Made by a program: the position numbers and the translations under genes
From: an uncultured virus (IMG/VR IMGVR_UViG_3300035656_000018)
Lineage: Duplodnaviria > Heunggongvirae > Uroviricota > Caudoviricetes
Length of the DNA: 23,921 bases
Virus record (IMG/VR): IMGVR_UViG_3300035656_000018
Direction: 5' to 3' (one strand)
The notes under the pieces: generated by a model
Told to the model about the DNA's origin: nothing
Databases searched by the model: none
The model's input: the letters and a program-made list of their open reading frames with translations, nothing else
In this document: positions 5,196-23,195 of the stretch, in pieces
How the letters are laid out: each line of letters starts with the position of its first letter
Numbering within the stretch: position 1 is the stretch's first letter

Positions 5196-6167
5196 ATGAA
5201 TGAATATCAAAAGAAAGCATGGGACTGTTTGACTCCAACTGAGCAGCAGTCCCTTTTTCTTCAGTTATCAGAGAGTAAATCCTCTTGGGAAGCTGGAGAG
5301 ATATTAAAATTATCTCATTATAAGTACCTAGAAATAAAAGAAAGGTCTGAAAAGTTCTTCCGATTATTTTCGGATTTCTTCGAAATACATGAGTCAATAT
5401 TTAGACCAGATTGCCCATGTGAAAGAAACTTCCAGGATTATATCGAGGCTTGCATAGAAAAAAGGATGAAAAGGAAAGAGGCTCTACTAAATACTGGAGA
5501 TGCCTCCCAATTAGTTCCTAAGGTAAATACTCGTAATCTAGAAAGAAATATAAGAAGACTACAAGGTTCAGATAATGAATGGGATAAACATTCTCTAGGT
5601 TTGATATTAGAATTCGATAGATGGAATAACTTTAGGATATTACCCAGGCAAGTACAGCAACCCTCTGCTTTCAAAAGAAGAGCCAATAAGAAAGAAAAGA
5701 TTTATATCAACTACTTATTAGAGAAAGTACCAGAATGGGTTCATACTAAACTAAGAGAAAGGTTTAAGTATAAGGTAAAGCCTAGTATAAAGAAATGGTG
5801 GGTATGTTTAATATCTGAAGATTTATATACTGATGGATATTTATTACTTCCCGTAAGACCTACAGATGAGGTAATGAGGGAATTCAGTAAATTCTACATG
5901 TATATATTCGAGGATAAGGATGATGCAGATACATTTGGATTCATGGTATCTAAATTCAATGCCAAGACTACTACTGTAAAACTAGGTCAGAAGTTTTGGC
6001 CAGAATATAGATTATGTATCGAAAAGGCTTTGAATTACAATCAGGTAAATAACATGGATTTCAATGTGAAGCAATTGGATATGGCCTATAACACTCACAT
6101 AAAACGAAAACCAAAGAAGAAACCTCAACCAGGAGCTGCTAGAGTGAAAGAAGACTCCTTCTATTGA
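5196..6167 (+). CDS. Protein with N-terminal sigma70 region-4-like HTH; putative transcription regulator
   Basis: AWDCLTPTEQQSLFLQLSESKSSWEAGEILKLSHYKYLEIKERSEKFF fits the sigma4 pattern (L.p.e..l.L.....s..E....L..s). The remainder is unrecognised. Confidence 0.55.
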   Translation: MNEYQKKAWDCLTPTEQQSLFLQLSESKSSWEAGEILKLSHYKYLEIKERSEKFFRLFSDFFEIHESIFRPDCPCERNFQDYIEACIEKRMKRKEALLNTGDASQLVPKVNTRNLERNIRRLQGSDNEWDKHSLGLILEFDRWNNFRILPRQVQQPSAFKRRANKKEKIYINYLLEKVPEWVHTKLRERFKYKVKPSIKKWWVCLISEDLYTDGYLLLPVRPTDEVMREFSKFYMYIFEDKDDADTFGFMVSKFNAKTTTVKLGQKFWPEYRLCIEKALNYNQVNNMDFNVKQLDMAYNTHIKRKPKKKPQPGAARVKEDSFY

Positions 6168-6168
6168 T

Positions 6169-6232
6169 CCTCAGCTAATATTAAAATAATAAGTAGAATA
6201 TTTTTCTATATAATATATAAGTATTATATTTG
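6169..6232 (+). promoter_or_regulatory. Bacteroidota-type promoter with upstream CCTCAGC box
   Basis: CCTCAGC at 6169-6175; -7 TATATTTG at 6225-6232; the -33 position reads TTTT rather than TTTG. Confidence 0.8.
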
Positions 6233-6272
6233 CATCAGAAAATTAATTAGACAAAATTTTAATATAGACAAT

Positions 6273-6551
6273 ATGAAGAATACCAACTTAGACATCCGCT
6301 TTAACAAAGCAAATAATATCCTCAACCAATTCAGTGATAGCTGGGAGGATGATAAATTGAACCTATTACCTAATTTCCCAAAAATTAAGGATATGGTATC
6401 AAACCACATTACTCAAGAGAATTACTTATGGTTAATCACTTATGATTTACCTAATGATCTCTTCGATAAGATTGATAACATGGGATTAGTTCCCTATAAG
6501 TATGTAACTCATGAAGAATTAACTCAAACCTATTACAATCAAAGATTTTAA
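6273..6551 (+). CDS. hypothetical protein
   Basis: 92-aa ORF directly behind a promoter and conserved leader. Confidence 0.75.
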   Translation: MKNTNLDIRFNKANNILNQFSDSWEDDKLNLLPNFPKIKDMVSNHITQENYLWLITYDLPNDLFDKIDNMGLVPYKYVTHEELTQTYYNQRF

Positions 6552-6555
6552 AACT

Positions 6556-7131
6556 ATGGCAAAAAAGAAAAAAGATAAACCAGCTCCATCAAAGGAAAAA
6601 CAAAATTTCCTAGGAGCTGCAGGTAGAAACATGAAGTACAAGGATCTCAAAAGAAAGGCGGTAATCCTTGGTATGCCTTTTCCTGATGCTTGTGCTGCAG
6701 GAGTATTTGATTTAATCAAGTATATCAGTAACTCTACTAACAAACCCGATAAATCCTTAATTGACCAGTATGATGAATGGGCAGATAAACAATTGGAAGC
6801 AATTGGTTATGATAAAACTGACCCAATCCGTAATTCAAGATTAAGATTAGGATTCTTAGGAGAAGAGGGAGAAGATGGTATTCGAAAATTAAAAAGAGTA
6901 CCAGGTATAAAGAAACCCAAAGAAAAGAAACCTCCAAGAGAAAGGGATTCTTTTAATCTAATCAAGGGTACTAAGAAATCCTACTGTTATGAATTAACCG
7001 AAAAGGGATTTGACCAAGAGAGAGTAGTAAGGAGAATGAAAAAGAAATTCCATGATGCTAATGAGAAATCCATTCAACTCTGGTACAGGGCTGCAAAAAG
7101 GAAATTAAATGGTAAAACTAGCAAGAGATAA
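6556..7131 (+). CDS. basic hypothetical protein, possible nucleic-acid binding
   Basis: MAKKKK start, Lys-rich; Rho_N/HeH-like segment MKYKDLKRKAVILGM...DLIKYI. Confidence 0.75.
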   Translation: MAKKKKDKPAPSKEKQNFLGAAGRNMKYKDLKRKAVILGMPFPDACAAGVFDLIKYISNSTNKPDKSLIDQYDEWADKQLEAIGYDKTDPIRNSRLRLGFLGEEGEDGIRKLKRVPGIKKPKEKKPPRERDSFNLIKGTKKSYCYELTEKGFDQERVVRRMKKKFHDANEKSIQLWYRAAKRKLNGKTSKR

Positions 7132-7687
7132 TCGGAAAATATACCCAGACTTAATATATGTATGGACTTGGAGGCCTGATGAATATTGGGGATGGACCAA
7201 ATACCAATATGCAACAGAAAGTAAATACCGAACCGAGAAGTTGTTATATAAAAAACATATATGTGGTTTAGGATTCTTTTCAAGATACCATGCTAGAAGA
7301 ACCATAACTCTTTTATTAGGAGTAGATGCCAATTTATACATTCATACTATCAAGGGTAAGAATCTTATAAAACAAGGCATAACTGATTTACCCAAGAAAG
7401 GTCATCAATCGATATTCTTTAAGGGTAAGCCAACTAAAATACGAAGATTTATCTTTCCTGCTGAAGCAAGAATGGATAAACATAGGAGAAGGCATTTTGT
7501 AGTAAGAATGAATAAAATTTATAAGAAACATGGAAGAAGGGCATTCAACAGGGCATACCAAATTGCATTATACGGGTATAGGGATGAATTCTCACCTGAA
7601 TATCGAAAGCAAAAGAGATTACAGGTCCATTCTGCTATCCTACAGGAGATACAACAAGCTGAGTCAAGGGGAAAAGAACCAATTTAA
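7109..7687 (+). CDS. basic hypothetical protein
   Basis: 192-aa Arg/Lys-rich ORF in operon context. Confidence 0.7.
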   Translation: MVKLARDNRKIYPDLIYVWTWRPDEYWGWTKYQYATESKYRTEKLLYKKHICGLGFFSRYHARRTITLLLGVDANLYIHTIKGKNLIKQGITDLPKKGHQSIFFKGKPTKIRRFIFPAEARMDKHRRRHFVVRMNKIYKKHGRRAFNRAYQIALYGYRDEFSPEYRKQKRLQVHSAILQEIQQAESRGKEPI

Positions 7688-8096
7688 CCTTGATTGCTTG
7701 AATCATCCTCCTAGGATTTGGCAAATAGCCCTGTTCCTTACCAAGGTATATCATATTAAGTTTAATCGTATCTTATTCAAAAAGGCCTACGATTTCTTAG
7801 ATGACTTTGGAGAAGCTTCTCTGAAATTTCAGAATCAGGTTATTATCCCAGATAAATATCTCATAAGAGAATTACAATGGGAACTATGGAAACCTCTATC
7901 TGATTATAAAATAAGGAATAAGTATGCTTACTTCATGACCAATAGGAAACTAGATTCAGAAATTTGGGTCTACCCAATAAGATTTTCTGATAACTATGAA
8001 ACTTCGAAAAAAGGAAAATATCAATCATACACAGAAATGATGGGTAAATTGGGTTTTCCAGGTTTAACTAAAATATCATATAGCGATGAACACTAA
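7584..8096 (+). CDS. hypothetical protein
   Basis: ORF 7530-8096; start uncertain (ATG 7584 chosen); overlaps the upstream gene. Confidence 0.65.
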   Translation: MNSHLNIESKRDYRSILLSYRRYNKLSQGEKNQFNLDCLNHPPRIWQIALFLTKVYHIKFNRILFKKAYDFLDDFGEASLKFQNQVIIPDKYLIRELQWELWKPLSDYKIRNKYAYFMTNRKLDSEIWVYPIRFSDNYETSKKGKYQSYTEMMGKLGFPGLTKISYSDEH

Positions 8097-8310
8097 ATTA
8101 GAACAACATGGACCATATAATCCATTTGAGGGTAAATCCTTTAAGGTATTAACCTATAATCAAGTGGATCAGGTTATAAATTCTGAAGTAATTGAGATAA
8201 CTTCACAAGAACAGTTTAATACCGTTCTAGAAAACATAAAACAATTTAATAATGCACATGAATCTTTGGGACCATTCCTAAAGAAGTATAAAAAGCTTAT
8301 AACTGAGTGA
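8086..8310 (+). CDS. hypothetical protein
   Basis: 74-aa ORF overlapping the upstream stop. Confidence 0.65.
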   Translation: MNTKLEQHGPYNPFEGKSFKVLTYNQVDQVINSEVIEITSQEQFNTVLENIKQFNNAHESLGPFLKKYKKLITE

Positions 8311-8350
8311 TTAACTATATTCATTAACAAACCATTAAAATTAAACAATT

Positions 8351-8878
8351 ATGGCTAAGAAAAAAGAAACTAAGAAAGTTGAACTTAAAGAAGTATCTAG
8401 AGTAGAAATCAACGGTAATATCATTATTACTTACGAAGATGGCTCTGTAAAGATTATCCCGGCTCCCATTATGTTGACTGCAGACCAGGCATCCGAAATC
8501 TTCGGTTCAGAAGAAGACGAAGACGAAGAAGAGGAGGAAGAATCCGATGATGAGGATGAAGAAGAATCGGAAGATGACGAAGATGAAGATGATTCTGAAG
8601 AGGATGAGGAAGACGAAGAAGATGAGGACGAGGATGATTCCGATGAAGATGAAGAAGACGAGGAGGAAGAAGAGGAAGAACTGACTGGAGAAGCTCTTGC
8701 TGAAATGGACTTCGAAGAATTGGAAGATGTTTGCGATGACAAAGACCTTGATACTGATCCAGACGACTTCGATGAAGAAGACATCGAGAAACTTCGTAAG
8801 GCAATTGCCAAAGAATTAGGTATCAAATTGCCGGCTAAGAAGGAAGCTAAGGGTAAAGGTAAAAAGGGTAAAAAATAA
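8351..8878 (+). CDS. highly acidic (poly-D/E) protein with basic termini
   Basis: Long D/E tract, MAKKK start, KGKGKKGKK end, A-rich leader. Confidence 0.8.
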   Translation: MAKKKETKKVELKEVSRVEINGNIIITYEDGSVKIIPAPIMLTADQASEIFGSEEDEDEEEEEESDDEDEEESEDDEDEDDSEEDEEDEEDEDEDDSDEDEEDEEEEEEELTGEALAEMDFEELEDVCDDKDLDTDPDDFDEEDIEKLRKAIAKELGIKLPAKKEAKGKGKKGKK

Positions 8879-8896
8879 CCCATTTACCTAGCATAA

Positions 8897-8920
8897 AGGG
8901 TAGGAGATGATCCCTACCCT
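8897..8920. other. intergenic hairpin without a + strand U-tract
   Basis: AGGGTAGG (8897-8904) / CCTACCCT (8913-8920), followed by A's. Confidence 0.55.
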
Positions 8921-8995
8921 AAAAATTAACTACTATTAGGTTATGTAGAAGTCACAACTTATTTATAACACAACTTTTAAAAACTTATTAAGATT

Positions 8996-9397
8996 ATGGC
9001 AAAGAAAAAAGAAAACACCAAGAAAAAGGGTGCTAAGGAAAAAGATCCTGAAAAAGAAGCTAAACGCAAAGCTCGTATGGAAGCTATCAAAAACCGTCCT
9101 GCAGGTCAAAGACCGAACGGTAAACAAATCGATGTTATCAAGATTTCTGATAACTCAGAAGTTCAGAATTTCGGTTATGCAATCAAAACAAAGAAAGGTG
9201 CTCAGGGAGTATTGGTAACTTCAGTATTGGTAGTAGATGGTGCTCCAGTAAACACATCGGTTGCTTTTGTTCCCGGAGAATTGGCAATTAAGTCAAAGAA
9301 AGGACATGGTATTATCACTACTCCGAAGTCAAAGAAAGAAAAAGACACTGACGAGGAAGTAGATGAAGAAGAAACTTCTGAAGAAAACGAAGATTAA
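8996..9397 (+). CDS. hypothetical protein, Lys-rich N-terminus and acidic C-terminus
   Basis: 133-aa ORF with MAKKK start and a beta-rich core. Confidence 0.8.
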   Translation: MAKKKENTKKKGAKEKDPEKEAKRKARMEAIKNRPAGQRPNGKQIDVIKISDNSEVQNFGYAIKTKKGAQGVLVTSVLVVDGAPVNTSVAFVPGELAIKSKKGHGIITTPKSKKEKDTDEEVDEEETSEENED

Positions 9398-9431
9398 ACT
9401 CCATAACGATTATACATTATATCAATTATCC

Positions 9432-9470
9432 AAAGCCCATTGCCTCACAAAGGTGATGGGCTTTTTTATT
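9432..9470 (+). terminator. intrinsic terminator
   Basis: AAAGCCCATTGCCT-cacaa-AGGTGATGGGCTTT stem (with G-U pairs) running into TTTTTTATT. Confidence 0.85.
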
Positions 9471-9480
9471 TTCATAACCT

Positions 9481-9690
9481 ATGGTAACCAAAGAGGAGAT
9501 AAGAAAGAATATACAAATCATTGCACTTAATAATCTGATAGAAGATTATACTTCATTTCTAGAAGTATGCAAAAATCCCTTAGAAAGGGAATTAACAGAA
9601 AACATAATATCAGAAGCTAAGGAAATGATTTTAGAATATCAATCCCAAATAAAAAGGCCACAATGGAAAAAAGATCCTTCTCATCCTTAA
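9481..9690 (+). CDS. hypothetical protein
   Basis: 69-aa helical ORF. Confidence 0.6.
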   Translation: MVTKEEIRKNIQIIALNNLIEDYTSFLEVCKNPLERELTENIISEAKEMILEYQSQIKRPQWKKDPSHP

Positions 9691-10037
9691 TTTCACAGAT
9701 TGCCGAAATATACAAGGATATCAAATACTATAAATACCAAGCCCATATATCCTTGCAGCAAAGTAAGATGGGTGAATATAGGAAACACCAAGCCCATATT
9801 ATGTATCAGAAAAGAAAACTTTATTCTTTATCACAAAGAGTAAAAGATATTCTTAACAATCCAGTTCTAGAAGTGAAATATATATGGGGAAATGAAACTA
9901 AAACCAGTATTTTCTCAGGATTAACTCAAAGAGAGATATCTGATTATCTTCATACTTGTGCAATGGTAAAAGGGATTGAATTAAAAATCCTAGAAATCAA
10001 GGAAATCCCTACCTTTAATTCGGATTCATTTCTATAG
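9663..10037 (+). CDS. hypothetical protein
   Basis: 124-aa ORF. Confidence 0.65.
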   Translation: MEKRSFSSLISQIAEIYKDIKYYKYQAHISLQQSKMGEYRKHQAHIMYQKRKLYSLSQRVKDILNNPVLEVKYIWGNETKTSIFSGLTQREISDYLHTCAMVKGIELKILEIKEIPTFNSDSFL

Positions 10038-10067
10038 GTAAATATAAACTCATAAATTAATAAAGAT

Positions 10068-10625
10068 ATGACAAAGAAAGTAAAACCTGCTAAAAAAGCA
10101 AAGAAACCGGCTGATAAGACTCCGGAAATCACAAAAGCTGCAAAGGCTTTGGAAAACTACCTGAAAGAAAATAACCTGGATCCTGCAAAGGATTGGTCAA
10201 AGGACAAAACTCATGGTAAGGCAGTAAAAGAACTTATGGCAAAACTTAACAAGGAAAGAGATAAAGTTGCTGCCCAATATCCTGAGAAAGACACTGCTAA
10301 TCAGAAGAAGCTGGTAAAAATGAAAAAGGCTTCTGAAGATGAAAAGAAAGCTAAGAAGGAAGCTAAAGCAAAAGAGAAAAAGGAAAAAGCTAGTTCAGGT
10401 AGAACAGCAACTAAATACGATTATCCTTTGGTAGACGGAAGAGAAATGACTTCCGAAGAAAAGAAGAAATATCGTATGGCTCAGAGAAAATTGGCTGCAG
10501 GTAAGACTCCAAAAGAATCTAAGCCGAAGGAAGAACCTAAGAAGGAATCCAAAAAGGATAAGCCTTCTAAGAAAGATAAAAAGGCCAAAGATTCTAAGAA
10601 GAAAAAGGCCAAAGACGAGGATTAA
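10068..10625 (+). CDS. Lys/Ala-rich basic protein (histone H1-like composition)
   Basis: KKVKPAKKAKKPA and KKDKKAKDSKKKKAK tracts; KYDYP...KKKYR motif. Confidence 0.8.
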   Translation: MTKKVKPAKKAKKPADKTPEITKAAKALENYLKENNLDPAKDWSKDKTHGKAVKELMAKLNKERDKVAAQYPEKDTANQKKLVKMKKASEDEKKAKKEAKAKEKKEKASSGRTATKYDYPLVDGREMTSEEKKKYRMAQRKLAAGKTPKESKPKEEPKKESKKDKPSKKDKKAKDSKKKKAKDED

Positions 10626-10666
10626 TTTCCATTCTTATATTTGTTTTGTTAGTTATTAGTAGTTTT

Positions 10667-10700
10667 GGGCCTGGCAATAATCTTTGTCCAGGCCCTTTTT
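10667..10700 (+). terminator. intrinsic terminator
   Basis: GGGCCTGG (10667-10674) / CCAGGCCC (10688-10695) followed by TTTTT. Confidence 0.8.
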
Positions 10701-10712
10701 ATCTCTAAAGTT

Positions 10713-11558
10713 ATGAAAGAAGAAAAAGAAATATTCAAACCCAAACTGCGTATCACTACACTTTCAGAAAATGGTAATCCTTTATCTGATAGATTAGTAG
10801 ATGCTTGCACTGAGATGTATGCCGGTCCAAAGGTACAACATAAAGGTCCCATAAGAATAGAAGTAACCCTTGTTAATCAACAAGATATTTCTCAATTCAA
10901 AGAATACTTGGATAAATTATCTGGTAACTTACCAATCAAAGAATCTGCAGGTAGAGGAAGACCCTCTAATACTCAATCTAAAGAATTGGAATCCCCAAGA
11001 GAAGATATCCTTGCTGATGTAGAAAAGATGGTAAATGAAGGCAAAAGCCAACAGGATATTATTAAGTATCTTAGAGATCTTGGATTTGTATTCATCCTTA
11101 CAGAGGATTTCCTTTATCATTTCCCGGAATTTAAATTCGATAAGAAAGATGTGGGAGAACCCACCAACAATGGCCAATATCTCGATTCTTATTCATGGAT
11201 GGCAAGATGTATAAAGAGAGCAAAAGATCCTAAGACAGATAAATTTGACCCTATGATTCTATTTGGGTTCAGTATTCTGCAAGGTCCCTCAAAGAAGATC
11301 GTTCCCTATCTGTATAAGGAAAGGAAGAAACCCTTTAGGGCTCAGACTGGTAAAACTACTATCTCATTCTCTCAGGCAGAATTCACTAAGTTACCCAAGT
11401 ATATGTTAGAGGCAGAACGAATTAAATTCTCTACAGAACAAAGGCAATTGCTTATGACTCCGGATAAGAAACCCTCTAAGTTCTTCTTAAGATGGGCATC
11501 AGATGCCATATTCCCAGATTCAATCAAGGAAAAGATGGCTGAGATCTTGAAGAGATAA
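10713..11558 (+). CDS. hypothetical protein
   Basis: Long ORF; start moved to ATG 10713, downstream of the hairpin. Confidence 0.8.
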   Translation: MKEEKEIFKPKLRITTLSENGNPLSDRLVDACTEMYAGPKVQHKGPIRIEVTLVNQQDISQFKEYLDKLSGNLPIKESAGRGRPSNTQSKELESPREDILADVEKMVNEGKSQQDIIKYLRDLGFVFILTEDFLYHFPEFKFDKKDVGEPTNNGQYLDSYSWMARCIKRAKDPKTDKFDPMILFGFSILQGPSKKIVPYLYKERKKPFRAQTGKTTISFSQAEFTKLPKYMLEAERIKFSTEQRQLLMTPDKKPSKFFLRWASDAIFPDSIKEKMAEILKR

Positions 11559-11569
11559 TCCACTACCTA

Positions 11570-11612
11570 CCTCAGCAATATTTGCATATTATATATAAAT
11601 TTTATATATTTG
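11570..11612 (+). promoter_or_regulatory. Bacteroidota-type promoter with CCTCAGC box
   Basis: CCTCAGC at 11570-11576; TTTG 11581-11584, 20 nt spacer, TATATTTG 11605-11612. Confidence 0.88.
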
Positions 11613-11637
11613 TATAACGAAATAAATAATAAGAAAA

Positions 11638-12000
11638 ATGGATGCAGAAACCAAAACGGTTATTAAGAACATTGCCCAAATCCAAGTTGAGGCACTAACT
11701 CATATCTCTAAAAATTTAGAGGATACCGATCATTACCTTCTTAAAAAACTTCTTCAGATTGAAGAAGGAGAAATAAGAGGAGTATTAGATAATATGATAA
11801 AACTCTATTCAGATATGATAGAATATCCTCAACTTATAAAAACTCTTACAGAGTATCAATTATACGTCTGCTCTCATATCCTATGGAAAATGGAGGAAGA
11901 ATGGATAACAGATAATTCTCAAGGAGTTTTGGGAGCATGGGCAATCATTCAAAAATATACCAACGTATTACATCCGGAGTTAACACTTTTAAAACTTTAA
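11638..12000 (+). CDS. hypothetical protein
   Basis: 120-aa ORF directly after a promoter. Confidence 0.75.
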   Translation: MDAETKTVIKNIAQIQVEALTHISKNLEDTDHYLLKKLLQIEEGEIRGVLDNMIKLYSDMIEYPQLIKTLTEYQLYVCSHILWKMEEEWITDNSQGVLGAWAIIQKYTNVLHPELTLLKL

Positions 12001-12003
12001 ATT

Positions 12004-12270
12004 ATGGACAGAGAAGAATATCTTGAATCAGTTACCATGAATACTGGTATTAAAATGAATCCAGTAGAATCTTCTAATATAGAAGGTATTGGGTATGACA
12101 ACAAAAACAAACACTTATGGGTTGCTTTTAAGGGCAACAAAGTTTACCAGTATGATTTAGTTCCCAGAAAAACTTTCGAAGAACTAATGAATGCCGAATC
12201 TAAAGGGAAATATCTTAATTCTCATATCAAAGGACAATATGAAGCTACAGGATATGAACTCAAAAACTAA
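12004..12270 (+). CDS. KTSC domain protein
   Basis: VESSNIEGIGYD...LWVAFKGNKVYQY..VP...FEELMNAESKGKYLNSHIK matches KTSC. Confidence 0.92.
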   Translation: MDREEYLESVTMNTGIKMNPVESSNIEGIGYDNKNKHLWVAFKGNKVYQYDLVPRKTFEELMNAESKGKYLNSHIKGQYEATGYELKN

Positions 12271-12853
12271 ACATATTATTTTTCCGTTTTCCATTCTGGG
12301 AGTTACTCTTTTGGGATTCACTATTGCCAACACCAATAGTACCCGGAGGGTAACTCCTCCTTATGTAAAGGAGAGTAGAGAAGATTCTATTAGAAATGTA
12401 AAACGGTATGAGGAAAGCAAAAGAAGAGATTCTATATTCTTTGCTAAAGTAGATTCTATAAAGAAACTAAAGGATTCTCTTAGTAATCGGAGATTATACC
12501 AATATGCTTTCCTAGTAAGAGTTACTCCAGATAATATAATATTTACCGCAAGGAAATCTGGTTATCAACAAGTAACTTTAGATGCTCATTATACTAAACC
12601 CAGAGTATATTACCAAGTATTCACTTCCGATAAACCTTTATCACCGGAGGAAGCTTCTGCTTATGCTGAAAAATATGAATATGATCCCAGTAAGGTAACT
12701 ATATTAACCGTAGAACAGTATAATCAGAGATATGGTAAATCTTCATCTATTTCAGAATATGATATCTTTACTGAAGGTCTAGATTCCTACTATGATGATC
12801 CTGAAAACCTAGATGAGAACCCAGATGAAATCTTTGATTTCCTACTCGACTAG
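12254..12853 (+). CDS. membrane-anchored or secreted hypothetical protein
   Basis: Start at ATG 12254 gives an N-terminal hydrophobic helix IIFPFSILGVTLLGFTIA, followed by repeated DSI/DSL. Confidence 0.7.
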   Translation: MNSKTKHIIFPFSILGVTLLGFTIANTNSTRRVTPPYVKESREDSIRNVKRYEESKRRDSIFFAKVDSIKKLKDSLSNRRLYQYAFLVRVTPDNIIFTARKSGYQQVTLDAHYTKPRVYYQVFTSDKPLSPEEASAYAEKYEYDPSKVTILTVEQYNQRYGKSSSISEYDIFTEGLDSYYDDPENLDENPDEIFDFLLD

Positions 12854-12857
12854 AGAT

Positions 12858-12920
12858 CCTCAGCTATTGATAAAATAAAGTAGAATTATTTTTCTATTTA
12901 AAAAATAGTTCTTATATTTG
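12858..12920 (+). promoter_or_regulatory. Bacteroidota-type promoter with CCTCAGC box
   Basis: CCTCAGC at 12858-12864; TATATTTG at 12913-12920; the -33 position reads TTTT. Confidence 0.8.
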
Positions 12921-12962
12921 CATAGAGAAATTAATTAAGTAACATTTTTAAATTAGTCAATT

Positions 12963-13412
12963 ATGAAAAAAGTAAATTTGAACAAGGTAACCGAGTTAAT
13001 TAACAACCAAGTATCTAACTCATTGAAGGAAGTTAAGGCTTCTAAAACACAAAAGCCAAAAGAAACTAAAGAATCTAAGGCTAAGGAAGAACCCAAAGCA
13101 AAATTGGTAAAAACTACTACCAAGAAAGCTTCTACTAAAAAGGAAGAAGTTGTCAAGGAAGTTGCCAAACAACAGAAACCCAATATCATCGAACAAGTAA
13201 TCTCCAATCGGGAAGTGAAATACATTTACCCAGATGATGTTACTGATACTCTTTCAAGAAAGAAATGGAGACAACAAACCCGTAATGAACTTCGTAAATT
13301 AGAAAGGGAAATGCTCCGAATCCAAGATCATAACTCTAAAGAATACAAGTCTGCCCAAAATAAATATATTACCTTCCAGAAAAAAGTATTGAAGGTAGAT
13401 GAAGCAGTATAA
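12963..13412 (+). CDS. Lys-rich basic protein
   Basis: Lys-rich linker and KYIYP...RKKWR motif. Confidence 0.8.
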   Translation: MKKVNLNKVTELINNQVSNSLKEVKASKTQKPKETKESKAKEEPKAKLVKTTTKKASTKKEEVVKEVAKQQKPNIIEQVISNREVKYIYPDDVTDTLSRKKWRQQTRNELRKLEREMLRIQDHNSKEYKSAQNKYITFQKKVLKVDEAV

Positions 13413-13430
13413 TTAATCCTTTGTTAACCC

Positions 13431-13483
13431 GGGACTGGGAATCATTTGAGGGCAATCAATATTCCCAGTCCCATATTTATTTT
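13431..13483 (+). terminator. strong hairpin, probable terminator or attenuator
   Basis: GGGACTGGGAAT (13431-13442) / ATTCCCAGTCCC (13461-13472) followed by ATATTTATTTT. Confidence 0.7.
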
Positions 13484-13487
13484 GGTT

Positions 13488-13838
13488 ATGGACTATCGAA
13501 TATTCTCCGATAAGGAGATGGAAAAACAGGAAAAGGACATGGTAGAACTTCACAAGAGATGTGTAAAGAATTACCTTGTTCAAAGATCTCTCAAACACGG
13601 AAAGATTAAAAAATTCTTTATCGTATATGATTATTATCTAGGCACTGAGAATATAAGAAATTACTTTTTCAGGCCTATAGATATGTTCGTAAGGTTTTTA
13701 TTGTTGGGTAAACTTGAAGAAATAGAAGACTATGTCAAAGCTGATTCTAGAAAGAAGAAAAGAAAACATAAGAGAAATAAAAGTATGGTATCTTCAGAGT
13801 CAAAAACTATACGAAGAAAAAATGGTAGAGATAAATAA
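13488..13838 (+). CDS. hypothetical protein
   Basis: Start moved to ATG 13488, after the hairpin. Confidence 0.65.
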   Translation: MDYRIFSDKEMEKQEKDMVELHKRCVKNYLVQRSLKHGKIKKFFIVYDYYLGTENIRNYFFRPIDMFVRFLLLGKLEEIEDYVKADSRKKKRKHKRNKSMVSSESKTIRRKNGRDK

Positions 13839-14055
13839 GACCAGCAAGGTATTATTTTCTGGGCCAGTATCTTCTATGGTTGCTTGTTGGAGAAATGCTT
13901 TACTCTTGGTAAGAAGATCTTATAGGATATCGAAAGAATCTAGAATTTCTTTAAGAAACCTTCAACATAGTACTAGGGATATTAATGCAGTAAATGACTT
14001 AGAATTAGGTCAAGGTGTTAAATTTATAATCATTGAATTATGTTTCGAGAAATAG
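13732..14055 (+). CDS. hypothetical protein
   Basis: 107-aa ORF overlapping the tail of the upstream ORF. Confidence 0.55.
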   Translation: MSKLILERRKENIREIKVWYLQSQKLYEEKMVEINKTSKVLFSGPVSSMVACWRNALLLVRRSYRISKESRISLRNLQHSTRDINAVNDLELGQGVKFIIIELCFEK

Positions 14056-14393
14056 TAAAAGATGTATATATCGGTAAATCACAACTGGGGATCTGGGTAA
14101 ATGGGAAAAGGGTCCCCAAAGAAACTCTGGTAAAGGATATTGCCTTACCAACCCTACTGGGAAATAAATTGCCAGATTATGGTACCATAGGAAATTTTAC
14201 CCAGTGGGAATTCGAAGTTAACCCAGGAGGCAATCACAAATTATTTATCACAGGTATACCCAAAAAAACTTATGACTTGGATTTATACCGATTAAAAGGG
14301 AGATTATGGTCATCCTATTACGAGGATGATAAAAGGGGATACTTATTTCAGGTATTACCTTATGATGTTAAACACCTAGAAACAGAGATATAA
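14040..14393 (+). CDS. hypothetical protein
   Basis: 117-aa ORF. Confidence 0.7.
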   Translation: MFREIVKDVYIGKSQLGIWVNGKRVPKETLVKDIALPTLLGNKLPDYGTIGNFTQWEFEVNPGGNHKLFITGIPKKTYDLDLYRLKGRLWSSYYEDDKRGYLFQVLPYDVKHLETEI

Positions 14394-14397
14394 TATA

Positions 14398-14793
14398 ATG
14401 GAAACAAAAGATTACGTAAAGATATTTAGACTAGATCAAGAGAACTTCCAATTTAATAGAGGGGAGTTTATGAATAAAATGGGAGAAGATTTACTAGAAG
14501 TATGCCAAAGGCAACAAAAGATAAACCCAGTAACTGGTCACATATATTATTCAGATTTTAAAAAGGTAGTAAAATACTTCGAGGATAAATTTAATGAAAT
14601 CAGTCGGCAAAGTATAAGACCTTTATCCCAGAATTTATGGAAGGCATTCTTTGCAACTCAGGTAGTGCCCCTAAGAAAACTCTGGTACCCAAAAACACAA
14701 AAAAGGATAGAGGAAATGAAAAATAACTCTAGTGAACAAGACAAAAAATCCTCGAGAGGTAAAAAAGGCAATTATGGCAAAGGAAATCGTTGA
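14398..14793 (+). CDS. hypothetical protein
   Basis: 131-aa ORF. Confidence 0.7.
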   Translation: METKDYVKIFRLDQENFQFNRGEFMNKMGEDLLEVCQRQQKINPVTGHIYYSDFKKVVKYFEDKFNEISRQSIRPLSQNLWKAFFATQVVPLRKLWYPKTQKRIEEMKNNSSEQDKKSSRGKKGNYGKGNR

Positions 14794-15079
14794 CCTTCAT
14801 GGCAATATTTTTAAGGTAATTAAAGGTTGGGAATTTTATAACAAGGTTCCCAACCTTGAAGGAAATTATACCTGGATATTTACTAGGGATAGGATTACCG
14901 ATACTCAATTCATTTTGGCTTTAAATGAAGAACTCAATATAGCAGTTGGTTATTGGTATTCTAATATTTATCAACTATACGTAGCTCGTCCTCTTAAAAG
15001 GATTGGATACGATGAATCTAAGGATATAAGAAAAGAATATTTGTATAATGGCAAAAGACAACATAAAAAGATTTCCTAG
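14774..15079 (+). CDS. hypothetical protein
   Basis: Start moved to ATG 14774. Confidence 0.65.
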   Translation: MAKEIVDLHGNIFKVIKGWEFYNKVPNLEGNYTWIFTRDRITDTQFILALNEELNIAVGYWYSNIYQLYVARPLKRIGYDESKDIRKEYLYNGKRQHKKIS

Positions 15080-15956
15080 ACCTATGGGAACTACTGCAAT
15101 GGCAGCAGAATACCAAAAGAGTCAGAATCTTGAAGATTTACAAAAGGTATACAACTACATTATCAATCACTGGTTGATGGGTAATGGTATGCTATGTGGG
15201 ATTATGTATGATATTAATACCTTCTCAACAAAGACAGGTATAGATATCAATTACATACGAGTATTTATGAGAGATAGATTATTGCAATCTAAGCTCTGGG
15301 ATAAAGAAAGACAGGAAGAAATGCTACAAGCTCTATTGGGAGAACAAGTAGCATGGGCTTTAGAGGATAGAATGGAGATATCCCATCAGGTAAACATCCT
15401 AAGGGAATCTCAGGGAGGGCATTACACTCCATTCATATCGGCTGAATTGAATAAAGCTCTTAAGATGAAACTGGATTCTTCTACTTCATTACAGTCTATC
15501 ATACGTACATTTATGGGTGGAGGAACTACCAATATCTTTAATCAATTTGGAGATACCCAGAATAATCAATTAAATCAGAACCAAGGCATATCAATAGATG
15601 AAGCTAGAAAGATTATCCTAGAATCTCAAAAGATAATGGATAAGCCACAGGAAGCCAAATTATTGGCAGATCACTATGATTTATCTTCTTTACCCGAGGT
15701 AGTTGCTACTAAGCAAGAGGGAATTGATACTACCAAAGAGGGCCTTACTTTGAATACTGCAGAGATGAGGCAAATTACTGATGATTATAAGGGAGCTATG
15801 GAACTCTCTTCAAGAGAACACCATGAATTAAGAAGAGAGATAGAGGCTAACATAGATCCCGAGGATCCAGACCCAGAAATGGATATCTATTTAGATGAGG
15901 AGCAATATGAAGAAAAAGAGCCTACCTCAATAGCTGAACAATTCCTCAACAGGTAA
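15048..15956 (+). CDS. hypothetical protein, possibly terminase small subunit-like
   Basis: HTH-like DINTFSTKTGIDINYIR, helical middle, GGTTNIFNQ segment and acidic tail. The gene is well supported; the function is speculative. Confidence 0.4.
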   Translation: MAKDNIKRFPRPMGTTAMAAEYQKSQNLEDLQKVYNYIINHWLMGNGMLCGIMYDINTFSTKTGIDINYIRVFMRDRLLQSKLWDKERQEEMLQALLGEQVAWALEDRMEISHQVNILRESQGGHYTPFISAELNKALKMKLDSSTSLQSIIRTFMGGGTTNIFNQFGDTQNNQLNQNQGISIDEARKIILESQKIMDKPQEAKLLADHYDLSSLPEVVATKQEGIDTTKEGLTLNTAEMRQITDDYKGAMELSSREHHELRREIEANIDPEDPDPEMDIYLDEEQYEEKEPTSIAEQFLNR

Positions 15957-15997
15957 TCGAGGTTTATTGCATAATTAATTTATTATTCTTAAATTTG
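15944..15997 (+). promoter_or_regulatory. Bacteroidota-type promoter with variant CCTCAAC box
   Basis: CCTCAAC at 15944-15950; ATTG 15966-15969, 20 nt spacer, TAAATTTG 15990-15997. Confidence 0.8.
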
Positions 15998-16019
15998 CAT
16001 CAAAATAAATAATAAGATT

Positions 16020-16214
16020 ATGGATAAAACCACATTAAAACAGCTTAAACCAGGTACACTATTCAGATTAAAAGATTCTGAATCCAGTCCAGTATGGGTA
16101 AGAGATCATTATGATAGGTCTTCTAAAACTTATGCTTGCCATAAATACGAAGACTACAATCATGAAGCTTTCTTCAAAGGAACCAGAACAGTATTCATTA
16201 ATTTTACATATTAG
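16020..16214 (+). CDS. small hypothetical protein
   Basis: 64-aa beta-rich ORF directly after a promoter. Confidence 0.75.
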   Translation: MDKTTLKQLKPGTLFRLKDSESSPVWVRDHYDRSSKTYACHKYEDYNHEAFFKGTRTVFINFTY

Positions 16215-16219
16215 ACATT

Positions 16220-16901
16220 ATGAACATCAAAAACCTATTCAACAGATTTCGTAAACGGGAACCAGAGTTAAGTTATTCCCTGAATCTAATCTACCTAGAA
16301 GATACTAAGGTAGTATTCAACCAGAATATACAATGTGCTAAAGACCTAGAGAATTACCTATCGGCTTATATGAGACTATTTGGCATGTATTCAGATAAGC
16401 CTTATGTACTAATCTATCAGGAATACANNNNNNNNNNGCAGATACTGGGTATATGACAAAGAACCTTACCTATTATACTACAAGGTACCACTCATAGTTA
16501 ACCTCAGTAGAAATCTATCAGGAAAATCAGACATGGTAATAACCAAAGAAAAATACCAAGCTGCTAAGGCTTTAGTTCCAGCCCATGAAGTATCTGATAG
16601 ATTCAAGATACCAGAATATATTACTGGAGTCTTTACAGATATCTGGTATAAATGCCAAGGATATATGGATACGGACCATGTTGGTTTAGAGGAGATACTG
16701 GAATTGATGCAGCACAATTGGTTAAAGGAATTTGAATTATTAGTATTCAAAAGGAATTATGATACAGATATGTTATTCCTTAATCATTCTCTTACCTATA
16801 TCTTGGACCAGACAGAAGAAGAGGGCCGAAGAATATGTATTCAAAACATTATCGAACGTAACATAAATCAAGAAAATCAAGATGAAAACGAAACAATTTA
16901 A
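16220..16901 (+). CDS. hypothetical protein, probably a single gene split by an N gap
   Basis: The 16533-16901 frame is open back to the gap at 16428-16437 (RYWVYDKEPYLL...). A true gap length divisible by 3 would fuse it to ORF 16220. Confidence 0.65.
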
Positions 16902-17187
16902 CGTAAGCCAGTCTAGAATATATCCAGATATCAGGGATAAATATCTGGATTATATGGGAGAACAATATAATATGTTCATTTCGGATGATACTCTAAAGAA
17001 TGATCTCAGAGAAATCCTTCGAAAGGGTACTAATAAAACTATCCATTTCAATATCCTAGAAAAGAACTCAGATCTCTTGGTATTTGAAACCTCTGAATAC
17101 AGTAAGCTATTAGAGTTCACTAACCATTATCTCTGGATATTCAGGCTAGTAAACGATAAATGGAATTTAATCCGATACAGAGTATAA
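16882..17187 (+). CDS. hypothetical protein
   Basis: 101-aa ORF followed by a terminator. Confidence 0.7.
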   Translation: MKTKQFNVSQSRIYPDIRDKYLDYMGEQYNMFISDDTLKNDLREILRKGTNKTIHFNILEKNSDLLVFETSEYSKLLEFTNHYLWIFRLVNDKWNLIRYRV

Positions 17188-17191
17188 ATTC

Positions 17192-17219
17192 GAAAGGCAG
17201 ACTACTATCTGCCTTTCTT
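17192..17219 (+). terminator. intrinsic terminator
   Basis: GAAAGGCAGA-ctacta-TCTGCCTTTC followed by TT. Confidence 0.75.
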
Positions 17220-17234
17220 AGCGTTTACACATAT

Positions 17235-17287
17235 CCTCAGCTTAGTATTCCAGGGTTTGCATATATAAAATAAAGTAGTTATATTTG
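17235..17287 (+). promoter_or_regulatory. Bacteroidota-type promoter with CCTCAGC box
   Basis: CCTCAGC at 17235-17241; TTTG 17256-17259, 20 nt spacer, TATATTTG 17280-17287. Confidence 0.9.
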
Positions 17288-17329
17288 CATCAGAAAAAGA
17301 AATTAATAACTATTTAAAATTTTAGACTT

Positions 17330-17689
17330 ATGAAAAATAATGAAACCTTCCAAACCACACAACATCTAGACAAGTTAGTTACTAACCTAGGTCTTCAAAT
17401 CCAAGAATTATTTTCCTTAGACTTAGAGGAAATCCTAGATTACAGCAACAATCTAATGAATCTATTAGTTAATGCCTACGTTGAAAACCAATGCTTAGCA
17501 TTATCTGCAATGATATCTAAACAGGACGGATTTGCAATATACTCTTTCTTATTTCAAACTCCCGATACTTCTAATGGTGCTGCAGATGCTCTGGTAAACT
17601 TTGCCATGAACTTTACCGATGGAGAAGCTAATATCAAATCTATCAACAGAATATCTTCAAACATAATGCAAATCACATTTACAGTATGA
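17330..17689 (+). CDS. hypothetical protein
   Basis: 119-aa ORF directly after a promoter. Confidence 0.75.
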   Translation: MKNNETFQTTQHLDKLVTNLGLQIQELFSLDLEEILDYSNNLMNLLVNAYVENQCLALSAMISKQDGFAIYSFLFQTPDTSNGAADALVNFAMNFTDGEANIKSINRISSNIMQITFTV

Positions 17690-18000
17690 CACCCATAAGA
17701 AGACTTTTAAATATCGTACAATTTGATCTAGCCGAGAAACTAAACTTGGCTAGATTAAGATGGTACCATCTTAATCATCAGGATCAATGCCTTCAATCAG
17801 TAATTTATGGTAATCCTGATAATTGTACCTTGTTCAGACTAAGGGGAGTACTTACTAATTTGCTTAGAGCTAACTTCTTAAGTTACTACATATTAGCAGA
17901 TACTCCTGAATCTCTATCTATTTCAATACAAGGTAATGCTATCATTACATTTGTGATAACTAAAGACAATTACATAACTTTTACAATAACGAAATTATGA
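17686..18000 (+). CDS. hypothetical protein
   Basis: ATGA-coupled ORF. Confidence 0.7.
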   Translation: MTPIRRLLNIVQFDLAEKLNLARLRWYHLNHQDQCLQSVIYGNPDNCTLFRLRGVLTNLLRANFLSYYILADTPESLSISIQGNAIITFVITKDNYITFTITKL

Positions 18001-18293
18001 GCACAACTCCATACCCAGGTCCAGATGAAGTAATTATACCATCTCGTATATATTTCGATGAAGGTAAGAGAATAGATGTTAAAGTATGGCCTAAGACCCT
18101 TCAATTAACAGGTCCCACTAAGGATTTAAACAAGGTATTCAAAACCCTTGAAGAATACGATGATTGGTGGCATCAGTTTAAGAAAAAGAATCCAGATGCC
18201 TTCCGTAAAGATGCGAAATATGTAAAATCCATTAATGGCCTCTTCCTTATCCAGAAAAGGCTCTATCAGATACCCAATAGAAGCCTCAGCTAA
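17997..18293 (+). CDS. hypothetical protein
   Basis: ATGA-coupled ORF. Confidence 0.7.
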   Translation: MSTTPYPGPDEVIIPSRIYFDEGKRIDVKVWPKTLQLTGPTKDLNKVFKTLEEYDDWWHQFKKKNPDAFRKDAKYVKSINGLFLIQKRLYQIPNRSLS

Positions 18294-18337
18294 GTATTCT
18301 GGGATATTGCATATTTAAAAATAAAGTATTAAATTTG
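18284..18337 (+). promoter_or_regulatory. Bacteroidota-type promoter with CCTCAGC box
   Basis: CCTCAGC at 18284-18290; ATTG 18306-18309, 20 nt spacer, TAAATTTG 18330-18337. Confidence 0.87.
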
Positions 18338-18382
18338 CATCAGAGAAAAGAAATATATTATTCATTTAAAATTTAGGCAATC

Positions 18383-18772
18383 ATGAACTTGAACAACATT
18401 ACAACAGCCCTTAAAACCGGTATCACAATTTACCAATATGAACAATGGCAAAATACTGGTTCAGTCAACCTAATGCAAAAGGAATCCCACATGCTTTCCA
18501 AGATTTGGCTTAAGACAAATATCCATAACCCAGATTCTTTGGATAAACCCTTTATCCAACTCTCTGCTACTTTTACTTCAGAATTCGATATTCAAGAATA
18601 CAACGAATGGTTAAGGGCTAACCAGTACAAATTATATCCATTGCTACTAGATATTCTCAAGATATCACTAAAGGATGCTTACGATAATTATTCCAATACT
18701 TCTAACATTCATTACGAAGGAGGGAAATTCCCAAGTATGCTTACCATTCAATTATTTAACTTAGAATTCTAA
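18383..18772 (+). CDS. hypothetical protein
   Basis: 129-aa ORF directly after a promoter. Confidence 0.75.
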   Translation: MNLNNITTALKTGITIYQYEQWQNTGSVNLMQKESHMLSKIWLKTNIHNPDSLDKPFIQLSATFTSEFDIQEYNEWLRANQYKLYPLLLDILKISLKDAYDNYSNTSNIHYEGGKFPSMLTIQLFNLEF

Positions 18773-18776
18773 TGTC

Positions 18777-19043
18777 ATGAAACTAACCATAACAACCCTA
18801 GTAATCGTAGAAGGCTCTTATATCCAAGGAATTTTCCATTCCTTGGAAGAGCATCCAGGTAAAGCTTACCAAGAACTGGTAGACCAAGTAGAAAACGAAT
18901 ATGGTTATGATGCCGATAAAGATCATGTACCATTACATTTCAAAACTATCCAAGACATAGAGAATTACTTTGAACTTGTACACATAGAGACTCAAGAACT
19001 TACATCAACTGGATTTAAAACAGCAATCTTTAAAAATGAATAA
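18777..19043 (+). CDS. hypothetical protein
   Basis: 88-aa ORF. Confidence 0.7.
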   Translation: MKLTITTLVIVEGSYIQGIFHSLEEHPGKAYQELVDQVENEYGYDADKDHVPLHFKTIQDIENYFELVHIETQELTSTGFKTAIFKNE

Positions 19044-19395
19044 TATGGAACCAATCATAACAGTAAACGAATACCCTATCGGATGGGAATGGTTAGACAG
19101 AGTACCTCTAGAAGACTTTACTTGGCTAATCGAAATATTCTCTACTATAACTGATAACACTGATACTTATGACTTTGCTACCTTCGATAAGGAAGCAACC
19201 AATGGAGAACCTCCTTATCCAGTAATCGAAATCGATAGAAAAGGATTAGCCTACTTCATGAACGATGATCAAGGCTATGAACCAGGTATATCAATGTACG
19301 GTCATTACATAGCATGTAAATCCCTAGATATATCTTCAGAAGAGGAATACATGAATCAATTAACGGACATAGAACTAATCTGTAACGAATTATGA
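19036..19395 (+). CDS. acidic hypothetical protein
   Basis: 119-aa ORF; alternative start at 19045. Confidence 0.72.
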   Translation: MNNMEPIITVNEYPIGWEWLDRVPLEDFTWLIEIFSTITDNTDTYDFATFDKEATNGEPPYPVIEIDRKGLAYFMNDDQGYEPGISMYGHYIACKSLDISSEEEYMNQLTDIELICNEL

Positions 19396-19628
19396 GAACA
19401 GCATTATACTACATAGGACTAGGGCTTATCCTAGTCCTATTCCTTAATTCCTCGGGGCCTAACTTAGATACATTCATACCAGGCAACCCATGGGAACATT
19501 ATTGCAAATATGAATTGCACAAGCATCCATTCCATACTAATGAGAAGGAATATAACTATTTCCTTGATACTTTTACTAGCACGGATAAATATGAACAAAT
19601 AATGGAGATATATGCTAACCCAAGGTAG
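19392..19628 (+). CDS. small protein with N-terminal transmembrane or signal helix
   Basis: ALYYIGLGLILVLFL; ATGA-coupled. Confidence 0.7.
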   Translation: MRTALYYIGLGLILVLFLNSSGPNLDTFIPGNPWEHYCKYELHKHPFHTNEKEYNYFLDTFTSTDKYEQIMEIYANPR

Positions 19629-19893
19629 ATTTCTAATTTCATATCAGGTATTCGATAATATACAGGTAAATAATATCGGACAAACGCATGTACGTGAGAT
19701 ACTAAAGGATACTCAAGCCTTTACCATCAATTATCGAACAGAACAAATAAGAGATTACCTCAGATATCCTGGGGAGGAACTAATATCTGAACATCTACAT
19801 ATGATTAATGCCCTGAAGGAAATCCAGAACTATTGGAATCTTACTTCAGAAAAAGTCATCATAACAGATATCATACCCATTCCTCAGCCATGA
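19612..19893 (+). CDS. hypothetical protein
   Basis: 93-aa ORF. Confidence 0.65.
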   Translation: MLTQGRFLISYQVFDNIQVNNIGQTHVREILKDTQAFTINYRTEQIRDYLRYPGEELISEHLHMINALKEIQNYWNLTSEKVIITDIIPIPQP

Positions 19894-19934
19894 TAACCAT
19901 GGTTTGCATATATAAAATAAATATATTACTTTTG
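19882..19934 (+). promoter_or_regulatory. Bacteroidota-type promoter with CCTCAGC box
   Basis: CCTCAGC at 19882-19888; TTTG 19903-19906, 20 nt spacer, TACTTTTG 19927-19934. Confidence 0.88.
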
Positions 19935-21395: not shown

Positions 21396-21403
21396 ATAAA
21401 AAG

Positions 21404-21437
21404 AATACCTAGAGCCTAGAAAACTCTAGGTATTTCT
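21404..21437 (+). terminator. probable intrinsic terminator
   Basis: AATACCTAGAG (21404-21414) / CTCTAGGTATT (21424-21434) followed by TCT. Confidence 0.7.
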
Positions 21438-22350: not shown

Positions 22351-22352
22351 AT

Positions 22353-22384
22353 ATTGCATAATTAAAAAATAGTTCTTATATTTG
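22353..22384 (+). promoter_or_regulatory. Bacteroidota-type promoter without a full CCTCAGC box
   Basis: ATTG 22353-22356, 20 nt spacer, TATATTTG 22377-22384; core shared with the promoter at 12913. Confidence 0.87.
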
Positions 22385-22427
22385 CATAGAGAAATTAATT
22401 AATTATTCATTTTTAAATATAGACAAT

Positions 22428-22796
22428 ATGAAAGATTTTAAACTGTACACTAAATTCAATTTTGCAAAATGCGTTCACCTCTCCCTGCTCTCAGTTCCCG
22501 AAGGTAACCTATGCTCTTCTCCTGAAGGTATATCAGACTTCATTAAGCTTTACTTACAAGAGTTACAAGATAATACCATTATTCCCGATTACTTAACTCT
22601 AGTATCAATCCAAACTATCGAAAACGAAGAAGCCGGAGTACATATATTAACCTTCGCTAAAAATAGTACAGAACATTTCGATGACGATGACACTGCCAGT
22701 ATCACTTGCTTCGAATGCTTACGGGATACTTTCGAAGATTCTATCGTTAACGAATTCGGAAGCCTTTACACTGTATCAATTGACTTTAACTTTTAA
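22428..22796 (+). CDS. acidic hypothetical protein
   Basis: 122-aa ORF directly after a promoter. Confidence 0.75.
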   Translation: MKDFKLYTKFNFAKCVHLSLLSVPEGNLCSSPEGISDFIKLYLQELQDNTIIPDYLTLVSIQTIENEEAGVHILTFAKNSTEHFDDDDTASITCFECLRDTFEDSIVNEFGSLYTVSIDFNF

Positions 22797-23177: not shown

Positions 23178-23195
23178 AACTAACCTAGTAATATT

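Follow-up and report, generated by a model that had tools for sequence, protein, structure and literature searches.

Short DNA elements upstream of a promoter are known as activator and UP-type sites, namely the class I sites of CAP-type proteins and the subsites read by the C-terminal domain of the RNA polymerase α subunit. In the middle promoters of phage T4 a MotA box near -30 takes the place of the -35 element, a case of sigma appropriation, and the ops element of RfaH lies in the transcribed leader, downstream of its promoter. We know of no upstream site of the activator kind described for a Bacteroidota phage. The PeSL cassettes of T4-like phages were reportedly treated by Arbiol and co-workers in 2010. 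Comeau et al. (2014; PMC4122927) deal with the same cassettes, and a preprint on the crAss-like phage phi14:2 describes tripartite middle promoters (Drobysheva et al., bioRxiv 10.1101/2020.03.07.982082). Here we describe a heptamer, CCTCAGC (the box), which recurs ahead of promoters in IMG/VR record IMGVR_UViG_3300035656_000018, a stretch of 23,921 bp (the window) that corresponds to the right ~21 kb of the ~85-kb genome of an uncultured Bacteroidota phage. In our view the probability is about one half that CCTCAGC is a lineage-specific, protein-binding promoter element, which would work at the level of DNA, in one orientation and on one face of the helix. A docking site for a transcription regulator is probable because the box stands in one orientation and at whole-helix-turn distances before most of the strong promoters.

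The box resembles the activator and UP-type sites in lying upstream of the -35/-33 element, in being locked in orientation and in stepping away from the promoter by whole turns; its centres, which by arithmetic from the -33 offsets would fall near -43, -53 and -64, match the upstream contacts of the E. coli polymerase. It differs from such sites in being GC-rich, 7 bp long, asymmetric and without a dyad partner, and both its binding by a protein and any effect of it are putative. Like the MotA box, it is a short, asymmetric, phage-specific sequence at many promoters of the host primary sigma type, but the -33 position is kept here, with the box a further 11-32 bp upstream of it. Neither MotA nor AsiA was annotated among the PHROGs-scanned proteins of the window and of G002, a genome of the same species (84,368 bp) which stands for the window's whole genome. 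As with the PeSL cassettes, early-type promoter cassettes are repeated between small variable open reading frames (ORFs) and may be exchange points between strains, but a stem-loop is present at one site of seven and the box is an isolated heptamer rather than part of a contiguous conserved composite. The likeness to phi14:2 is by description, both being Bacteroidota phages whose promoters for the host polymerase carry an extra conserved block; the phage studied here, however, is by its gene content (sheath, tube and baseplate genes) a myovirus and not crAss-like. With ops it has in common a short, strand-specific, GC-rich element and a gene for a NusG/RfaH fold in the same genome, but the box lies upstream of the promoter and a minus-strand copy in G002 has no co-directional transcription unit upstream of it.

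Six copies of CCTCAGC are present in the window, at 6169..6175, 11570..11576, 12858..12864, 17235..17241, 18284..18290 and 19882..19888, and all six are on the + strand, as the initial annotation had reported. The count is not random: 100 dinucleotide-preserving shuffles of the window, which we took as the chance level, held a mean of 0.89 copies and a maximum of four, none reaching six. Each copy precedes a TAnnTTTG element, as had been claimed, more fully written TAnnTTTG(C/T)AT, and a one-mismatch variant, CCTCAAC at 15944..15950 (+), does the same. When re-measured from box start to -7 start, the distances kept their reported values of 56, 35, 55, 45, 46 and 45 bp in the order given above, with -7 elements starting at 6225, 11605, 12913, 17280, 18330 and 19927 (+), and of 46 bp for the variant, whose -7 element starts at 15990 (+). 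CCTCAAC alone is not diagnostic, since four further copies fall in coding sequence (6123, 6320 and 11827 on the + strand, 11686 on the minus strand).

The long ORFs of the window are likewise all on the + strand, and the placement of the box is independent of their frames. At four sites it lies outside ORFs, 2-48 bp past a stop codon, the 6169 box starting 2 bp past the upstream one. At the other three it covers the 3' ends of unrelated ORFs in differing frames, namely the last codons of ORF 15048-15956 (the 15944 variant), the last two codons of ORF 17997-18293, in the frame CTC AGC TAA (18284), and, read in a different frame (CCT CAG CCA TGA), the end of ORF 19612-19893 (19882). The box is an island of conservation: with the seven sites aligned on it, the mean pairwise identity is 0.96 within the box, 0.29 over the 14 bp before it and 0.34 over the 14 bp after it. 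In the regions upstream of promoters, both here and in G002, the exact heptamer ranks first among the 210 permutations of its letters.

We defined a strong promoter-like site as TAnnTTTG[CT]A[TA] with at least 20 A/T among the 30 upstream bases. The window has ten such sites, six with the exact box, one with the one-mismatch variant and three with neither. The first box-bearing promoter has the -7 element TATATTTGCAT at 6225..6235 (+), and that at 11605 has TATATTTGTAT, with a -33 TTTGCAT from 11581. All seven box-linked sites lie 30-54 bp ahead of an ORF that starts with ATG. Their -33 position begins 24 bp ahead of the -7 element (a 20-bp spacing) and reads TTTG at three sites, ATTG at two and TTTT at two; the Bacteroides promoter consensus, as given in passages of PMC2483708, is TTTG at -33 and TAnnTTTG at -7. 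The earlier statement that CCTCAGC is no part of this canonical promoter is upheld, the box starting 11-32 bp upstream of -33. Each box-bearing promoter heads an operon at the right genome end, seven in all, whose small ORFs belong to no known family. At the strong promoter 22377..22387 (+), which has no box, a palindrome, GCCTTCGAAAGGC (22330-22342), stands in its stead.

The distances between box and -7 element differ by whole helical turns, falling at 35, 45/46 and 55/56 bp, with 57 bp added by G002. Measured upstream from -33, the start of the box is 11, 21-22 or 31-32 bp away, or about one, two or three turns, which would place it on roughly the same face of the DNA as -33. A Rayleigh test at a period of 10.5, against a uniform distribution over 30-60 bp, gives p = 6e-5 if the seven sites are independent. 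They form three homologous layouts (35; 45/46; 55/56), for which p = 0.008, and with the 57-bp layout of the G002 minus-strand site as a fourth p = 0.009-0.03, varying with the period. The helical phasing put forward in the initial annotation is real, with steps of ~10 bp, but weaker than claimed, because the seven sites reduce to three or four independent layouts. A scan of IMG/VR for CCTCAGC-N20-50-TAnnTTTGCAT returned at least 60 unique sequences; among the matches listed, 39 were unrelated coding sequence with spacings scattered over 27-55 bp, and 21 were from this phage group with spacings of 45, 46, 55 and 56 bp only. At the 17235 site the spacing is 45 bp in the species of the window and 55 bp in a more distant group (76% protein identity), a shift of one turn.

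In G002 CCTCAGC occurs nine times, six times linked to a promoter. Five + strand copies are the window's own sites, the 19882 site reading CCTCAAC there. A further copy, on the minus strand at 45570-45576, precedes a TATATTTGCAT promoter of that strand by 57 bp, in the spacer between two divergent genes, one on the minus strand (219 aa) and one, DnaB-like, on the + strand; by a rough hand estimate the chance of a minus-strand box-promoter placement in this genome is ~0.005. This box cannot act on read-through RNA because no co-directional gene lies upstream of it. A second minus-strand promoter (4781) has CCTCAGA at 56 bp. The three remaining copies lie on the minus strand, antisense in coding sequence, and ~3 are expected by chance in the whole genome (0.89 per 23.9 kb, scaled). 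All promoter-linked copies, those on the minus strand included, are co-oriented with their promoter, and the box thus follows the promoter and not the genome strand. The whole-genome scan bears out what had been proposed from the window: all copies above chance belong to promoters, and one lies, like its promoter, on the opposite strand. Nine of the eleven strong promoters in G002 have a box (six exact, three with one mismatch), and the other two are of the terminal-repeat type. Restriction avoidance was considered as an explanation for the distribution of the heptamer and rejected, the non-promoter copies being at about chance level, neither depleted nor in excess.

No deposited phage was matched by megablast, and a distant blastn search gave two uncultured records only, at 67-73% identity. 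Through the 323-aa protein encoded at 5196-6167 we found 221 relatives in IMG/VR, a group at ~100% identity and a group at ~76%, with genomes of ~84-88 kb, some of which have direct terminal repeats. G002 was compared with three genomes of the 76% group (G003, G004 and G005). The orthologue of the 17235 site is the sole site with the exact box in these three, and there the hairpin described below, a spacer of ~20 bp and the box form one conserved block. Orthologues of the 6169 site read CCTCGGA or CCTCGGC, those of the 11570 site CCTCCGT, CCTCTGT, CCTCAGT, CCTCCCT or CCTCACT, and those of the 12858 site CCTTAGC, CCCGAGC or CCTGGGC; the minus-strand promoter has CCTTAAGC at the box position. 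The relatives' forms have one to three mismatches, and their distance to the -7 element is in most cases 55-56 or 43-44 bp. Among 4-mers upstream of promoters CCTC is the most enriched in G002 (eight of nine promoters, 0.87 expected) and in G003 (6/12, 1.28 expected); it is fifth in G004 (6/13, 1.42 expected) and outside the eight top 4-mers listed for G005. In another clade (L169/L126/L145/L141) the box is kept at the minus-strand promoter and the flanks differ on both sides.

A more distant set was taken at 31-55% identity to the query P0112, which is itself 57% identical to the window protein. In these relatives TTGCA-N17-TATATTTGCA(T/A) promoters also follow the orthologous gene, but CCTCAGC stands before none of the promoters listed, and a few loci hold copies elsewhere. 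The GC-rich words that recur upstream are instead TCCTCGAGAGGA and TCCGAAGAAAAA (both L242), GGCCTTGAAAATA (L254) and CTGGGA (L251/L255), and such differences are as expected if the boxes co-evolve with lineage-specific factors. To judge from these comparisons, the exact heptamer belongs to the lineage of the window, placed on top of an older and looser element of the CCTC type; other boxes appear to be in use in sister lineages. A scan of host genomes for box plus promoter gave seven matches and, lacking a control pattern, was uninformative; six of the seven record titles name taxa that we take to be Bacteroidota.

To address RNA structure, each site was folded with 45 bp upstream and 15 bp downstream of the box and compared with shuffles. 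Six of the seven folds are no better than their shuffles (z of -0.68 to +0.46), and a consensus terminator scan at the boxes found nothing; the reading of the box as an RNA structure or terminator was rejected on these grounds. The seventh, 17190-17256, has z = -2.51, with one of 200 shuffles folding equally well. It contains a terminator-like hairpin at 17192..17217 (+), conserved in relatives and with TTTCTT directly 3' of the stem, which ends 17 bp before the 17235 box and leaves the box outside the stem. The stretch is also found in six runs labelled as RNA. Four were examined and consist of contigs with even cover over genes and intergenic regions, most likely DNA carry-over. One contig from other samples joins 11589 to 12909, promoter to promoter, and loose contig ends at 11605, 12890-12931 (12898/12931), 17262/17307 and 18320 are likewise promoter cores. 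Because the contigs of other samples break or re-join there, the promoter cassettes seem to be exchange points between strains, with the caveat that some of these joints and ends may reflect cross-alignment of paralogous cassettes.

This apparent exchange raises an alternative, that the box is no more than the 5' boundary of mobile promoter cassettes, held constant by recombination or by gene conversion among them and without a regulatory role of its own. We consider it unlikely. The homology between paralogous cassettes does start at the box, promoter cores seem to be recombination points (the 11589-12909 joint and the loose ends), near-identical core promoters are found at separate loci (22351-22394 and 23835-23878 are 95% identical) and the exact box is restricted to the lineage; gene conversion, however, copies contiguous tracts, and the 14 bp past the box are 34% alike against 96% for the box itself. 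The box is also kept while its spacing changes between 45 and 55 bp at the orthologous 17235 site, and while both flanks change at the minus-strand promoter of the other clade, and the stem-loop that defines a PeSL cassette is found at one of the seven sites only. A signal read by polymerase arriving from the upstream operon, in the non-template strand or in the RNA, seems a little less likely again, whether as a pause, a boundary, a termination site or an ops-like loading site for a NusG/RfaH-like factor. It would have to operate at the G002 minus-strand copy without a co-directional upstream gene and behind the terminator hairpin that precedes the 17235 box, and six of seven folds are shuffle-like, with no shared RNA structure. 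In its favour the phage encodes a NusG/RfaH-fold protein (4478-5194), the genes and boxes of the window share one strand, so that the box is on the non-template strand of any read-through, and at six of seven sites it lies at most 12 bp from the upstream stop codon; but the NusG-like protein is conserved throughout the family (at least 214 homologues) while the box is not, and known ops sites are downstream of promoters.

The remaining two readings concern the DNA rather than its transcription. CCTCAGC is the recognition site of BbvCI and Nt.BbvCI, and a programmed, strand-specific nick, or the modification of a base, could be directed to it in virion DNA or in DNA under replication. It is asymmetric, with a strict strand bias, and stands in non-coding positions, and relatives have genomes with direct terminal repeats, as do some nicked phages. 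The heptamer also occurs three times in passages of a review of nicking endonucleases (PMC3017599). Such a target would leave unexplained both the spacing of 35, 45 and 55 bp and the flip of strand with the promoter, and no restriction or nicking enzyme or methyltransferase is annotated among the 97 PHROGs-scanned and 17 Pfam-scanned proteins; we hold it to be improbable. Least probable is a Chi-like site that would shield the genome's right end against an exonuclease of the host. The copies in the window do lie in the last ~18 kb, on the strand ending 3' there, which would suit the orientation logic of RecBCD and Chi, but they are confined to positions upstream of promoters at fixed distances, those on the minus strand track minus-strand promoters rather than the genome end, and each relative's genome has a single copy, at a promoter.

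A reader of the box was sought among the phage proteins. The 238-aa protein encoded at 4478-5194 (+) is predicted to have a NusG/RfaH/Spt5 fold (mean pLDDT of the model, 67), with 38 Protein Data Bank (PDB) matches at E <=0.001 in Foldseek, including NusG (9a56_B, E 6.9e-11) and RfaH (8phk_P, E 1.6e-8). It has KOW-domain matches to NusG/Spt5 and a weak match to UpxY (E 8.7e-4), and two of its homologues, at least 214 in number, are named NusG by their source. We note that it is built from an NGN domain, an insert of ~60 residues modelled with low confidence and a KOW domain. The model suggests a gene for antitermination or read-through control in a nearly one-way genome. The 323-aa protein (5196-6167, +), encoded directly upstream of the first box, was modelled with a pLDDT of 83. 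Its N-terminal ~60 residues resemble the helix-turn-helix of sigma region 4 and the remaining fold is unmatched; the match to 3vfz_A (probability 1.00, target TM 0.71, E 0.6) is a hint of fold and not significant. The family has at least 851 members with a nearly invariant N-terminal domain, and this protein could read the family-wide TTTGCAT promoter words. Both proteins were set aside as poor candidates for the reader, as they are family-wide and the box is lineage-specific. Among the G002 ORFs of at least 50 aa, 12 of 106 have no homologue in G003-G005.

Several observations weigh against a protein-binding promoter element. The exact box is found at one of ten promoters in G003, one of ten in G004 and one of seven in G005, and the enrichment of CCTC in relatives is weak after correction for 256 k-mers. 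Three of the ten strong promoters of the window (22377, 23763 and 23861) have no box, and the promoters that have it should fire without an activator because they conform to the host consensus as they stand. The searches turned up no binding protein: for the small ORFs there was no significant match in Pfam, PHROGs or NCBIfam, and Pfam found no significant domain in 11 of the 12 lineage-restricted ORFs or in the product of the 219-aa minus-strand gene. The 323-aa protein is an unlikely reader of a lineage-specific box because its N-terminal domain is invariant across the family. The closeness to the upstream stop codon at six of seven sites means that the position of the box is constrained from both sides in compact intergenic regions, and the phasing could be a by-product of promoter architecture rather than of a face-specific contact. 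Since the RNA-labelled runs yielded contigs with even cover, they are uninformative on transcript starts, ends and strand.

Despite these points, we favour the box as a cis-acting element of the phage's own promoter cassettes, which are of the Bacteroidota primary-sigma type. A sequence-specific protein would read the asymmetric 7-bp box as a monomer-type site and, once bound, would sit where the upstream contacts of RNA polymerase fall. It would thereby set the strength or timing of the box promoters, by activation or by shut-off, and would most likely be phage-encoded and lineage-specific. The initial annotation had proposed a protein on one face of the DNA that contacts the polymerase; of this proposal the non-random, strand-locked occurrence and the ~10-bp steps stand, but the search described above identified no binder. 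We would go further only tentatively, to suggest that in this large family of myoviruses from gut and wastewater each lineage may have its own docking box one to three turns upstream of an otherwise host-type promoter (CCTCAGC here; TCCTCGAGAGGA, GGCCTTGAAAATA and CTGGGA among relatives), read by a fast-evolving phage factor. Among the papers listed by a literature search, none links CCTCAGC to a phage promoter, the contexts being enzyme sites or unrelated, and none deals with boxes that lie upstream of promoters in Bacteroides phages.

The surroundings of the box are those of a contractile-tailed phage. The PHROGs scan covered 36 proteins of the window and 61 of the 101 G002 ORFs of at least 70 aa, leaving out three ORFs at piece borders and the region equivalent to the window. 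Its matches include terminase, portal, major head protein, sheath, tube, tape measure and baseplate, together with a replication module of DnaB, primase, helicase, PolA, SSB, UvsX, FEN and SbcCD. From left to right the window leads from the end of the replication module through the seven small-ORF operons and a non-coding repeat region to the terminus. At 45640-45667 of G002 (L083) a -7-like TATATTGC lies only 3 nt before the ATG of the DnaB-like helicase gene, a hint that its transcript is leaderless or has a very short leader. Strong TAnnTTTGCAT promoters are otherwise absent from the replication and structural modules.

The leaders of this family's species end in TTTTAA(A)AT(A)TAGAC, with TAGAC or near variants, 3-6 nt before the ATG. 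In the window the word is at 6265-6275, 16212-16222, 17323-17332 and 22420-22430, and relatives have it too; the word may signal where translation starts in a phylum that makes no use of Shine-Dalgarno sequences. The box-headed operons encode small, very lysine-rich proteins that begin MAKKK or MTKK and have no known family, in a lysine-rich/acidic series at 6556-7131, 8351-8878, 8996-9397, 10068-10625 and 12963-13412. The product of 8351-8878 is extremely acidic, with long D/E runs, and also lacks a known family. A run of ten N at 16428-16437 lies inside ORF 16220-16456, and the contigs of four runs are 7 bases shorter there.

Two non-coding stretches, 21396-22430 and 23178-23700, contain repeated words in both orientations and look like iterons, origin or packaging sites. 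The words are TTGTGTACC / GGTACACAA, at 21504, 21563, 22080, 22134 and 22181, and ACCATnnnTGGCC, at 21855, 22194, 23380 and 23518; in relatives, a related GTGTACAC-like word stands ahead of the conserved box of the 17235 type. The window closes with a 98-bp repeat in tandem at 23720-23915, each unit with a box-less TATCTTTGCAT promoter. It evidently reaches the terminus of the genome or its terminal repeat, as the same 98-bp units open G002 (1724, 1821).

To our knowledge, almost nothing is known about how Bacteroidota phages programme the host RNA polymerase. If each lineage does have its own docking box, this would be a MotA-like takeover which retains -33 and retargets or times the host sigma-A RNA polymerase, and it would be the first of its kind to be defined among Bacteroidota phages. 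Should the box prove instead to be a strand-specific nick or a polymerase boundary, it would be a different feature of these phages, and also an undescribed one. The Bacteroidota are the dominant phylum of the gut, and the box offers a handle for the discovery of regulators, by pull-down or by profiling box against gene content; it could also yield portable, phage-controlled promoter parts for the engineering of Bacteroides.

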